Shown: positions 17,785 through 31,366, counted from the first letter of the stretch. The stretch: 64,000 nucleotides of DNA from Escherichia coli (GCF_003334315.1 NZ_QOWR01000007.1); one strand, 5' to 3'. Numbers and translations are program-made. The notes: generated by a model from the sequence alone, not told the origin.

Positions 17785-18948
17785 ATGCTGAGACACAACG
17801 TTCCTGTGCGACGGGATCTGGACCAGATCGCCGCTGACAACGGTTTCGACTTTCATATCATCGACAATGAAATCTATTGGGATGAGAGTCGGGCTTACCG
17901 TTTTACTCTGCGCCAGATTGAAGAGCAGATCGAAAAACCGACTGCGGAACTGCATCAGATGTGCCTTGAGGTGGTGGATCGCGCGGTAAAAGATGAAGAG
18001 ATCCTGACGCAACTGGCGATCCCGCCGTTGTACTGGGATGTGATCGCTGAAAGCTGGCGCGCCCGCGATCCTTCGCTGTATGGACGGATGGATTTTGCCT
18101 GGTGTGGCAATGCGCCGGTGAAGCTGCTGGAGTACAACGCCGATACGCCAACTTCATTGTACGAGTCGGCTTATTTCCAGTGGCTGTGGCTGGAGGATGC
18201 CCGGCGCAGCGGCATTATTCCGCGTGATGCCGATCAGTACAATGCTATTCAGGAACGCCTGATTTCACGCTTTAGCGAGCTTTACAGTCGGGAACCGTTT
18301 TATTTTTGCTGCTGTCAGGACACCGATGAAGACAGGAGTACCGTGCTGTACTTGCAGGACTGCGCCCAGCAGGCAGGGCAGGAGTCGCGGTTTATCTACA
18401 TTGAAGATCTCGGTTTGGGCGTCGGCGGCGTACTGACCGATCTTGATGATAATGTCATCCAGCGTGCATTTAAGCTGTATCCGCTGGAGTGGATGATGCG
18501 TGACGATAACGGTCCGCTGCTGCGCAAGCGTCGCGAGCAATGGGTGGAGCCGTTATGGAAAAGTATCTTGAGTAATAAAGGGCTAATGCCGCTGCTTTGG
18601 CGCTTCTTCCCTGGTCATCCTAACCTTCTTGCATCCTGGTTTGAGGGTGAAAAATCGCAGATTGCCGCTGGCGAAAGCTATGTGCGTAAACCGCTCTACT
18701 CGCGCGAAGGCGGAAATGTCACCATTTTCGACGGCCAGAATAACGTCGTTGACCACGCTGATGGTGATTACGCCGATGAACCGATGATCTACCAGGCGTT
18801 TCAACCTCTGCCGCGGTTTGGCGATAGCTACACACTCATCGGTAGCTGGATTGTCGATGATGAAGCGTGCGGAATGGGGATCCGTGAAGATAACACACTG
18901 ATCACCAAAGACACCTCACGTTTCGTTCCGCATTACATTGCTGGATAA
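17785..18948 (+). CDS. yjfC: glutathionylspermidine-synthase-like ATP-grasp protein YjfC
   Basis: 387 aa from ATG 17785 (GGGGAGG Shine-Dalgarno); starts 3 bp after the yjfM stop. Confidence 0.85.
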   Translation: MLRHNVPVRRDLDQIAADNGFDFHIIDNEIYWDESRAYRFTLRQIEEQIEKPTAELHQMCLEVVDRAVKDEEILTQLAIPPLYWDVIAESWRARDPSLYGRMDFAWCGNAPVKLLEYNADTPTSLYESAYFQWLWLEDARRSGIIPRDADQYNAIQERLISRFSELYSREPFYFCCCQDTDEDRSTVLYLQDCAQQAGQESRFIYIEDLGLGVGGVLTDLDDNVIQRAFKLYPLEWMMRDDNGPLLRKRREQWVEPLWKSILSNKGLMPLLWRFFPGHPNLLASWFEGEKSQIAAGESYVRKPLYSREGGNVTIFDGQNNVVDHADGDYADEPMIYQAFQPLPRFGDSYTLIGSWIVDDEACGMGIREDNTLITKDTSRFVPHYIAG

Positions 18949-18982
18949 GAATGTTTTAGCAATCTCTTTCTGTCATGAATCC

Positions 18983-19014
18983 ATGGCAGTGACCATACTA
19001 ATGGTGACTGCCAT
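18983..19014. promoter_or_regulatory. 14-bp imperfect inverted repeat immediately upstream of the aidB start
   Basis: atggcagtgaccat-acta-atggtgactgccat (one mismatch between arms). Confidence 0.3.
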
Positions 19015-19031
19015 TGATGGAGGGAGACACA

Positions 19032-20657
19032 GTGCACTGGCAAACTCACACCGTTTTTAATCAACCTATACCATTAAATAACAGCAACTTATACCTGTCT
19101 GATGGCGCGCTCTGCGAAGCGGTAACGCGTGAAGGTGCTGGCTGGGATAGCGATTTTCTAGCCAGTATTGGTCAGCAGTTAGGAACGGCTGAATCCCTTG
19201 AACTGGGGCGGCTGGCGAATGTGAATCCGCCTGAATTATTGCGCTACGATGCGCAAGGACGCCGTCTGGACGATGTGCGTTTTCACCCCGCCTGGCACCT
19301 GCTGATGCAGGCGCTATGTACCAATCGGGTGCACAATCTTGCCTGGGAAGAAGACGCTCGCTCCGGCGCATTTGTGGCGCGCGCGGCGCGTTTTATGTTA
19401 CATGCGCAGGTTGAGGCAGGGTCGTTATGTCCGATAACCATGACCTTTGCCGCCACGCCATTGTTGTTACAGATGTTACCCGCGCCGTTTCAGGACTGGA
19501 CCACGCCGCTATTGAGCGATCGCTACGATTCTCACTTATTGTCAGGTGGGCAAAAACGCGGTTTGTTGATTGGCATGGGAATGACGGAAAAGCAGGGCGG
19601 TTCCGATGTTATGAGCAACACCACCCGTGCAGAGCGTCTGGAAGATGGCTCTTATCGGCTGGTGGGGCATAAATGGTTTTTCTCGGTTCCGCAAAGCGAT
19701 GCGCATCTGGTGCTGGCGCAGACCGCGGGTGGCCTGTCCTGCTTTTTTGTGCCGCGCTTTTTGCCTGACGGGCAACGCAACGCGATTCGCCTCGAGCGGC
19801 TGAAAGATAAGCTGGGTAATCGCTCTAACGCCAGTTGCGAAGTGGAGTTTCAGGATGCCATTGGTTGGTTGTTGGGGCAGGAAGGGGAAGGAATTCGTCT
19901 GATCCTGAAAATGGGTGGGATGACGCGTTTTGATTGCGCCCTGGGTAGCCATGCCATGATGCGCCGTGCATTTTCGCTGGCGATTTATCATGCACATCAA
20001 CGCCATGTTTTTGGTAATCCATTGATCCAACAGCCCCTTATGCGTCATGTCTTAAGTCGCATGGCACTTCAGCTTGAAGGGCAAACGGCGTTGCTGTTTC
20101 GTCTTGCGCGAGCGTGGGACCGGCGTGCCGATGCCAAAGAAGCCCTGTGGGCGCGTTTATTTACGCCTGCGGCAAAATTTGTGATCTGCAAAAGAGGTAT
20201 GCCGTTTGTGGCCGAAGCGATGGAGGTGCTGGGCGGCATTGGTTATTGCGAGGAGAGCGAGCTGCCGCGGCTTTACCGGGAGATGCCGGTAAACAGTATT
20301 TGGGAAGGTTCCGGCAATATTATGTGCCTGGATGTGTTGCGCGTTCTCAATAAGCAAGCGGGCGTATACGACTTATTGTCGGAAGCATTTGTGGAAGTGA
20401 AAGGGCAGGATCGCTATTTTGATCGCGCGGTTCGTCGTTTACAGCAGCAGCTGCGTAAGCCAGCTGAAGAACTGGGGCGAGAGATTACTCATCAGCTATT
20501 CCTGCTGGGCTGCGGTGCGCAAATGTTGAAATATGCTTCTCCGCCAATGGCGCAGGCGTGGTGTCAGGTGATGTTAGATACGCGCGGCGGCGTACGGTTG
20601 TCAGAGCAGATCCAGAATGATTTATTGCTGCGGGCGACGGGGGGAGTGTGTGTGTAA
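19032..20657 (+). CDS. aidB: isovaleryl-CoA-dehydrogenase-like adaptive-response protein AidB
   Basis: 541 aa from GTG 19032 (VHWQTHTVFNQP...), acyl-CoA dehydrogenase fold. Confidence 0.92.
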   Translation: MHWQTHTVFNQPIPLNNSNLYLSDGALCEAVTREGAGWDSDFLASIGQQLGTAESLELGRLANVNPPELLRYDAQGRRLDDVRFHPAWHLLMQALCTNRVHNLAWEEDARSGAFVARAARFMLHAQVEAGSLCPITMTFAATPLLLQMLPAPFQDWTTPLLSDRYDSHLLSGGQKRGLLIGMGMTEKQGGSDVMSNTTRAERLEDGSYRLVGHKWFFSVPQSDAHLVLAQTAGGLSCFFVPRFLPDGQRNAIRLERLKDKLGNRSNASCEVEFQDAIGWLLGQEGEGIRLILKMGGMTRFDCALGSHAMMRRAFSLAIYHAHQRHVFGNPLIQQPLMRHVLSRMALQLEGQTALLFRLARAWDRRADAKEALWARLFTPAAKFVICKRGMPFVAEAMEVLGGIGYCEESELPRLYREMPVNSIWEGSGNIMCLDVLRVLNKQAGVYDLLSEAFVEVKGQDRYFDRAVRRLQQQLRKPAEELGREITHQLFLLGCGAQMLKYASPPMAQAWCQVMLDTRGGVRLSEQIQNDLLLRATGGVCV

Positions 20658-29547: not shown

Positions 29548-29855
29548 AGATACCTCCTCGACGGCTGACTTTGTGTGCTCTCCTCTGTGATGATCTTCTG
29601 ATTTAATTTTAATCAATGATAAAGAAGTTGATGGTGACCATTTCTGATGCAGTTGTTCGAAAAAACACTGTGACGGAATGTGATGAACTTCAAATCAGCG
29701 GTTTAGAGGTTATTTGCGAAAGGGGAGATTTATTTCTGCTCCGCCCTTGAGTTTAGCGGGGTATGTCAGTACTATAACGCGTCATTTTTCAGCCGACCTT
29801 TAACACGTTCCTTGCCTCCCCGGGATTCGGCTGACCCAGACAGGAGGCTGAATAA

Positions 29856-30269
<414 letters not shown>

Positions 30270-31313: not shown

Positions 31314-31334
31314 TTCGTTATTCAACGAGACGTA

Positions 31335-31366
31335 AAAACGCCGACCAGTGGTCGGCGTTTTGCTTT
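31335..31366 (+). terminator. intrinsic terminator of the rpsF-rplI operon
   Basis: cgccgaccagtggtcggcg stem then ttttgcttt. Confidence 0.8.

Follow-up and report, generated by a model that had tools for sequence, protein, structure and literature searches.

A hairpin predicted to enclose the aidB promoter of Escherichia coli and its possible role in gating translation by transcript origin

Fold-back inhibition was reportedly described by Davis, Simons and Kleckner in 1985 in the transposase mRNA of IS10/Tn10, and a related stem-loop that occludes the ribosome-binding site is said to occur in IS50. In phage T4, McPheeters et al. in 1986 and Gott et al. in 1988 reportedly found that the early read-through RNA of genes e (lysozyme), soc and I-TevI sequesters the ribosome-binding site, with late promoters inside the stem-loop giving a translatable mRNA. 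A stem-loop occluding the ribosome-binding site is also present in IS200 (PMC3196728).

A comparable arrangement is proposed here for aidB of Escherichia coli, within a window of 64,000 nt (64 kb), the whole stretch of DNA that was analysed. The proposal shares with IS10/Tn10 a ribosome-binding site that would be hidden only in transcripts from outside, a promoter of the gene's own that starts inside the repeat, and an expected insulation from impinging transcription. With the phage T4 genes it shares a promoter within the hairpin and translation that would be gated by where the transcript starts. However, IS10/Tn10 is a mobile element and aidB is a chromosomal housekeeping or stress gene. Unlike in IS10/Tn10, the 5' arm at aidB doubles as the -35/UP region of a regulated promoter, and the aidB case is a computational prediction. 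In phage T4 the control is temporal and acts inside one programme, whereas at aidB the effect would be to keep two unrelated transcription units apart.

The aidB promoter is a textbook case of Ada activation and sigma-S selectivity, and work on its regulation has stayed almost wholly at the DNA level. A full-text literature search (aidB promoter with inverted repeat or palindrome; aidB with yjfC) found no dyad or read-through hairpin, the primary aidB papers (Landini 1994, 1995, 1996; Lacour 2002, 2003; Rippa 2010) lying outside its scope. If the proposal is true, there is an unrecognised layer of control on a classic model promoter, and an overlooked RNA device would influence any aidB expression measured where there is transcription from upstream, be it in a construct or under a given condition. 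The aidB case would also be a clear instance, on a chromosome, of a promoter lying within a hairpin that blocks translation, a counterpart of the IS10 and phage T4 fold-back devices. If the gating reading is false, the finding is a mere dyad on a known promoter.

The inverted repeat and the aidB promoter

The repeat lies just upstream of aidB. Its parts and the adjoining Shine-Dalgarno region are as follows, with positions relative to the transcription start given where they apply.

18983-18996, plus strand: arm 1 of the inverted repeat, ATGGCAGTGACCAT, at -23 to -10 (from sequence and conservation)
18997-19000, plus strand: spacer (loop) ACTA between the arms
19001-19014, plus strand: arm 2 of the inverted repeat, ATGGTGACTGCCAT, at -5 to +9 (from sequence and the mapped start)
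19019-19026, plus strand: Shine-Dalgarno region, GGAGGGAG

The arms are complementary at 13 of 14 positions, the sole mismatch being G18991 opposite G19006. A longer version of the repeat, 18979-18996 with 19001-19018, is complementary at 16 of 18. The near-perfect 14-bp inverted repeat noticed in the sequence-only reading, with its ACTA loop, is borne out, and the GTG at 19032 that it took as the aidB start is the annotated start in strain MG1655. Its description of the repeat as abutting the start codon is loose, as arm 2 ends 17 nt short of the GTG, although the repeat does adjoin the Shine-Dalgarno sequence.

A total of 2 repeats of such quality (14-nt arms, at most one mismatch, loop of at most 12 nt) are present in the 64-kb window. 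The other, of equal quality, is at 31334 and is terminator-like in appearance. The number expected by chance per 64-kb window has a mean of 0.19 from dinucleotide shuffles and is 0.13 by an analytic estimate, and for the whole E. coli genome approximately 10 are expected. The repeat is locally unexpected, yet with about 10 chance cases per genome it is on its own suggestive rather than compelling. The RNA fold of 18975-19050 has an energy of -27.2 kcal/mol (z = -3.2). As single-stranded DNA, the two strands fold at -13.3 and -12.4 kcal/mol (z = -6.1 and -5.1).

The yjfC-aidB spacer in the window has no differences from that of K-12 MG1655. An identical spacer is found in 4231 of 5413 E. coli genomes, and the repeat is almost invariant in the species. 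No second copy was found in the genome at BLAST sensitivity, the median being 1 place per genome across the 5413, and the 64-kb window holds no further copies with one mismatch or fewer. This single copy per genome rules out a repetitive extragenic palindrome of the REP/BIME type. A known RNA family was likewise rejected, as none of the 5 matches to Rfam 15 in the window (gathering score) is near 18950-19035.

The repeat covers positions -23 to +9 of the well-studied aidB promoter; as DNA, therefore, this region was already known. The promoter of the literature, with its Ada box, UP element, CATACT with -12C and -13C, sigma-S selectivity, repression by Lrp and autorepression by AidB, is this same DNA. 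The promoter and the neighbouring genes are placed as follows.

17785..18948, plus strand: yjfC coding sequence, stop TAA at 18946-18948 (RefSeq annotation of the colinear K-12 region)
18950-18962, plus strand: Ada box, AATGTTTTAGCAA, at -56 to -44; it fits AAT(N)6GCAA and is outside the inverted repeat
18994-18999, plus strand: -10 hexamer CATACT, whose C is -12, with -13C at 18993; at the tip of the hairpin
19006, plus strand: aidB transcription start (+1, G), inside arm 2, giving a 5' UTR of 26 nt
19032..20657, plus strand: aidB coding sequence with GTG start (annotation, translation and orthologues)

The sigma-S-preferred aidB promoter is known for a -10 element that starts with C (-12C) (PMC3141248), and the sole candidate for it is CATACT at 18994-18999. 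The sequence CCATACT is almost invariant in aidB upstream regions across the Enterobacterales. Also conserved is the 3' part of arm 1, TGACCAT, which runs from just upstream into the -10 element. The likely -35 hexamer is CTGTCA at 18970-18975, and it is overlapped by the 5' arm of the basal stem described below.

The published mapping of the promoter, as relayed by the supplement of bioRxiv 10.1101/2020.02.05.936344, places -13C at NC_000913.2 4412259 and the start at 4412272. The 1977-bp offset between NC_000913.2 and NC_000913.3 was verified before the start site was placed in the window, where a window position X corresponds to NC_000913.3 X + 4,395,243. On this basis -13C falls on C18993 and the aidB start on G19006. 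The last 9 nt of arm 2 are all that is transcribed of it from the aidB promoter. The promoter's own mRNA is therefore unable to form the hairpin, because its start is inside arm 2 and arm 1 is missing, and RNA from +1 (G19006) is predicted to be unstructured (fold z = +0.2). The sequence-only reading had given weight to whether transcription starts downstream of the repeat; the start is inside it, a position that settles this point in neither direction.

Ada recognises the core AAT(N)6GCAA (PMC3788762). This motif is located 20 nt upstream of arm 1, and neither it nor AAAGCGCA is found in the repeat. In other genera the position of the Ada box is occupied by TTTTGTGAyC. AidB is reported to favour AT-rich UP elements upstream of the -35 (PMC3546729, PMC3788762), whereas the repeat is at -23 to +9 and is not AT-rich. 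In orthologous promoters the arms of the repeat and their spacing are unconserved. The suggestion that the repeat might be an operator for Ada or AidB is not supported from the sequence, and neither protein appears to explain it.

The scan for terminators over 18700-19300 predicted no intrinsic terminator between yjfC and aidB. The repeat is like one in being a stable GC-containing stem-loop at an operon end, downstream of yjfC, but differs in that a U-tract is absent after both stems at aidB. Neither the 14-bp stem nor the long hairpin has a U-tract 3' of it, the 3' flank being TGATGGAGGGAG. With no U-tract within 0-2 nt of the stem and a negative scan of 18700-19300, identity as an intrinsic terminator was rejected.

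The fold predicted for read-through RNA

When RNA that starts within yjfC or immediately downstream of it is folded, the repeat forms the apex of a hairpin of approximately 65 nt, 18963-19027, in both minimum-free-energy and partition-function folds. Below the repeat, this hairpin has three further parts.

18963-18975, plus strand: UCUCUUUCUGUCA, the basal stem's 5' arm, a run of pyrimidines able to pair with the Shine-Dalgarno region (from folds, RNAalifold and pair counts)
18976-18982, plus strand: 7-nt bulge UGAAUCC, separating basal stem from repeat (from folds)
19015-19027, plus strand: 3' arm of the basal stem, UGAUGGAGGGAGA, containing the Shine-Dalgarno GGAGG (19019-19023)

The basal stem formed by UCUCUUUCUGUCA and UGAUGGAGGGAGA has 13 bp, 4 of them G.U. 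Within the Shine-Dalgarno window, the predicted mean probability of being unpaired is 0.004 in the read-through RNA vs 0.47 in RNA from +1. In 1000 shuffles of the upstream part this probability averaged 0.33, and 0.2% of the shuffles were as low as observed (p = 0.002). The fold energy is -38.2 kcal/mol vs -25.0 +/- 3.2 kcal/mol for the same shuffles. The same calculation on 53 neighbouring K-12 genes sets aidB apart: its long/short ratio is 128, and no other exceeds 3.

Changes made in silico separate the contributions of the two stems. When arm 1 is complemented, the probability of being unpaired rises 16-fold to 0.065, and when both arms are complemented it is back at 0.004. Complementing the 5' arm of the basal stem raises it to 0.31. 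This pattern suggests that it is the basal stem that hides the ribosome-binding site, the 14-bp repeat being a clamp. The predicted fold has the features of a fold-back device: the Shine-Dalgarno sequence is on the 3' strand, and the gene's own start is inside the hairpin, giving an mRNA that lacks the 5' strand. A hairpin that limits translation, as offered in the sequence-only reading, does not hold for the promoter's own mRNA, which starts in arm 2 and is unstructured, but the idea survives in modified form as a prediction for yjfC read-through RNA.

Comparison of aidB upstream regions

The aidB upstream regions of 28 genomes were compared, together with 20 further distinct sequences from a metagenome pattern scan. 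The module compared is approximately 80 nt, from TTTTGTGAyC to the start codon, and is almost constant in length. In 10 sequences aidB is adjacent to yjfC without a terminator between them: E. coli, E. albertii, S. enterica, S. salamae, 3 Citrobacter-like sequences, Phytobacter and 2 metagenomic contigs. The comparison group of 28 has the rlmB terminator or other sequence upstream of aidB.

The fold z of the module is -3.3 to -6.6 (median -5.1) in all 10 yjfC-adjacent sequences vs a median of -1.3 in the 28 others (Mann-Whitney p ~2e-6, from a test that ignores phylogeny). Median module energies are -34.6 kcal/mol (n=10) and -22.1 kcal/mol (n=28), respectively. In a fixed register, 14 to 18 of the 18 basal stem pairs are present in the yjfC-adjacent sequences vs a median of 11 in the others (p ~5e-6, phylogeny again being ignored). 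RNAalifold on the 10 yjfC-adjacent sequences independently predicts the stem between the pyrimidine tract and the Shine-Dalgarno sequence. Its covariation term is -0.36, with few two-sided changes, and most of the basal pairs are either conserved or changed on one side. No consensus structure was predicted by RNAalifold from an alignment of 20 species (20 genera), the structure being confined to the yjfC-adjacent group. Across the 20 species, 71.9% of cells are paired vs 39-54% in slid controls, and the covariation score is 0.224 vs 0.172.

The apical stems vary in sequence yet still pair, as with GGCAG:CTGCC in E. coli and GGCGC:GCGCC in Salmonella. The E. coli pair TCCATGGCAG/CTGCCATTGA corresponds to TCAATGGCGC/GCGCCATTGA in Salmonella, with 2 apparent double changes. 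The inner stem of Salmonella is different (AGTCA/TGACT) and has a 5-nt shift. As a dyad, the Salmonella sequence has other arms and a centre moved by approximately 2.5-4.5 bp; Citrobacter and Enterobacter have little or no dyad, and a significant dyad is absent from most genera. S. enterica has a strong apical hairpin (z = -3.6), and its Shine-Dalgarno region is only partly sequestered, at 0.23, which is no different from shuffles. The repeat of E. albertii has 3 mismatches.

One of the basal pairs is A:U, G:C or G.U depending on the lineage. In 9 of the 10 sequences the sense RNA folds more stably than its antisense, the margin being 10-13 kcal/mol in Escherichia, where it is due to the G.U pairs. 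Within E. coli, the polymorphisms A18975G and A18983G keep the pairing as G.U. The common polymorphism T18976G is inside the 7-nt bulge. The variants T19002A/G, and a G-to-T change in the Shine-Dalgarno sequence of one strain, break pairs and are uncompensated.

Four features favour an RNA structure on read-through transcripts over a DNA operator: the dyad varies in sequence and spacing, the pairing depends on G.U, the two strands are asymmetric, and the structure is linked with absence of an upstream terminator.

Gating by transcript origin and its alternatives

The reading preferred here, with a probability of about 0.45, is that a fold-back hairpin gates aidB translation by the origin of the transcript and so insulates aidB from transcription of the yjf operon. 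It is built on the repeat, the position of the repeat relative to the mapped start, the predicted structures and the comparative pattern. The hairpin of approximately 65 nt (18963-19027), with the 14-bp repeat as its apical stem, would enclose the entire aidB core promoter and could form only in RNA containing both halves, which is to say in transcripts entering from yjfC, their presumed source. In such RNA, 18963-18975 would pair with 19015-19027 and hide the ribosome-binding site, the repeat clamping this pairing. Transcripts from the aidB promoter, starting at G19006 without the 5' half, would have an open ribosome-binding site. Under the model, translation of aidB would require firing of its own promoter, which is controlled by Ada, sigma-S and Lrp. 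Read-through RNA, being untranslated, would probably be open to Rho as well. The model presumes that read-through RNA exists, for which the lack of a predicted terminator and the correlation of structure with absence of an upstream terminator give indirect support, and the block to its translation and any effect of Rho would follow from the predicted fold. If true, the model would account for the complementarity between the Shine-Dalgarno sequence and an untranscribed pyrimidine tract beside the -35 region.

On the evolutionary side, it is conceivable, at odds slightly short of even, that a conserved promoter-enclosing hairpin silences yjfC read-through and that selection keeps it only in lineages without a terminator between the genes. 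If so, the comparative data show the device being retained in lineages open to read-through and eroding in those with an intervening terminator.

Some observations count against gating. The two arms of the basal stem coincide with elements conserved for other reasons, the 5' arm overlapping the -35/UP region and the 3' arm being the Shine-Dalgarno sequence, and complementarity between pyrimidines and purines that includes G.U pairs easily arises. The covariation is thin, the Shine-Dalgarno sequence of S. enterica is only partly covered, the 3'-end data of Adams 2021 list no end at this site, and there are the uncompensated E. coli variants.

The hairpin might instead serve the upstream operon, either as a 3'-end stabiliser against exonucleases after Rho-dependent or other termination, or as an RNase III site that separates the yjfKLMC mRNA from aidB. 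The stacked helices of 13 and 14 bp do approach the length of an RNase III substrate. The hairpin is strong in just those sequences in which yjfC lacks an intrinsic terminator and weak in those with a terminator ahead of aidB, and in S. enterica the apical hairpin is strong while the Shine-Dalgarno sequence is only partly covered. Such a role is nevertheless rather improbable. The absence of a U-tract after the stem means that it is not an intrinsic terminator, and this role leaves unexplained the specific complementarity to the Shine-Dalgarno sequence, extending to the start region, that the hairpin base has in most of the yjfC-adjacent sequences. The 3'-end data of Adams 2021 list no RNA 3' end between NC_000913.3 4414240 and 4414279, which is a weak negative, and record none at 4414226-4414270, which argues against the operon-end role. 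Even less probable is a palindromic operator at which a putative dimeric repressor would block RNA polymerase, for example where anaerobiosis or acetate controls aidB independently of Ada. The dyad has its centre at -10/+1, where repressors classically bind, it may overlap the Lrp footprint, and its near invariance in E. coli (the 4231 of 5413 genomes with an identical spacer) would fit an operator. However, the sequence and spacing of the half-sites are unconserved, being shifted in Salmonella and with little or no dyad in Citrobacter and Enterobacter, and half-sites of 14 bp that are 4 bp apart are atypical for a dimer. The larger structure needs G.U pairs, which in DNA are mismatches, and the sense strand is better by 10 kcal/mol. 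There is also no second copy in the genome at BLAST sensitivity, and the sites of the known regulators are upstream of it.

It is also possible, though unlikely, that the hairpin is a functionless by-product, in which independent constraints on the extended -10 (TGACCAT), the 5' UTR (CTGCCAT) and the Shine-Dalgarno sequence were combined with template-switch (quasi-palindrome) mutation, without selection. Even species that have no repeat conserve half of each arm as part of the promoter or UTR, about 10 such repeats per genome are expected by chance, E. albertii has its 3 mismatches, and several E. coli variants break pairs. Templated mutation can also produce apparently compensatory changes in a single step. 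A by-product leaves three features unexplained: all 10 yjfC-adjacent sequences have stable hairpins that differ in sequence, unlike the 28 others; the hairpin's base can pair with the Shine-Dalgarno sequence; and aidB is the sole extreme among the 53 neighbouring genes.

The Ada box and the aidB upstream region in other lineages

The Ada box, AATGTTTTAGCAA at positions 18950-18962 of the window, was compared with the corresponding sequence upstream of aidB in L091, L092, L095, L008, L002 and others. Among the genera compared, it is found only in E. coli and E. albertii. In all other genera examined, this position is occupied by TTTTGTGAyC lacking GCAA. On this sequence comparison, the confinement of the box to these two species suggests that Ada control of aidB may be specific to Escherichia. 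The complementarity of TTGTG to the CACAA directly 5' of the aidB start codon is retained also in lineages without the large hairpin predicted in the yjfC-aidB read-through RNA.

A divergent aidB upstream region is found in the metagenome contig OGDJ01001213.1 (9618-9699, minus strand). The aidB encoded there has an N-terminus that resembles that of E. coli, with a GTG start (VHWQTHTVFNQPIPL), and is preceded by the rlmB terminator. The Ada box is replaced by TTTTGTGACC, and the dyad is a different, short one (ATAACCAT-ACTT-ATGGCTAT).

In GCA_900450065.1, labelled E. coli, the second arm of the promoter inverted repeat has a 1-nt deletion (GGTGA-TGCC, around position 1501), which places an ATG at the start of the first arm in frame with aidB. 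The annotated aidB product is accordingly extended at its N-terminus by MAVTILMVMPLMEGDT, to 557 aa. The upstream yjfC is split into four fragments in this strain.

When E. coli genomes were searched with the yjfC-aidB spacer, 2 of the 5416 matching places were on plasmids rather than chromosomes.

Other inverted repeats and arm-like sites

Only one further inverted repeat in the window, AAAAACGCCGACCAGTGGTCGGCGTTTTG (31334-31362), is of similar quality. It is situated between rplI and the convergent yjfZ and looks like a bidirectional intrinsic terminator. Allowing up to 3 mismatches, ATGGCAGTGACCAT occurs at 13 sites in the whole window, counting both arms, against 4.8 +/- 2.1 in shuffled sequences. 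The remaining sites are dispersed over coding regions and the excess is likely due to codon or ATGG/CCAT composition.

RNA ends and RNA families in the window

The 3'-end data set of Adams 2021 includes the end of an antisense RNA within the 3' part of aidB, presumably from transcription of the convergent yjfN. Five Rfam families match the window at gathering score, all of which are expected in this region of E. coli.

RNA features of the window
~20553 (NC_000913.3 4415796), minus strand, antisense RNA 3' end (Adams 2021)
29792-29876, RpsF leader (Rfam)
48188-48310, ES239 (Rfam)
51662-51719, STnc450 (Rfam)
51799-51841, ES036 (Rfam)
60825-60903, naRNA4 (Rfam)
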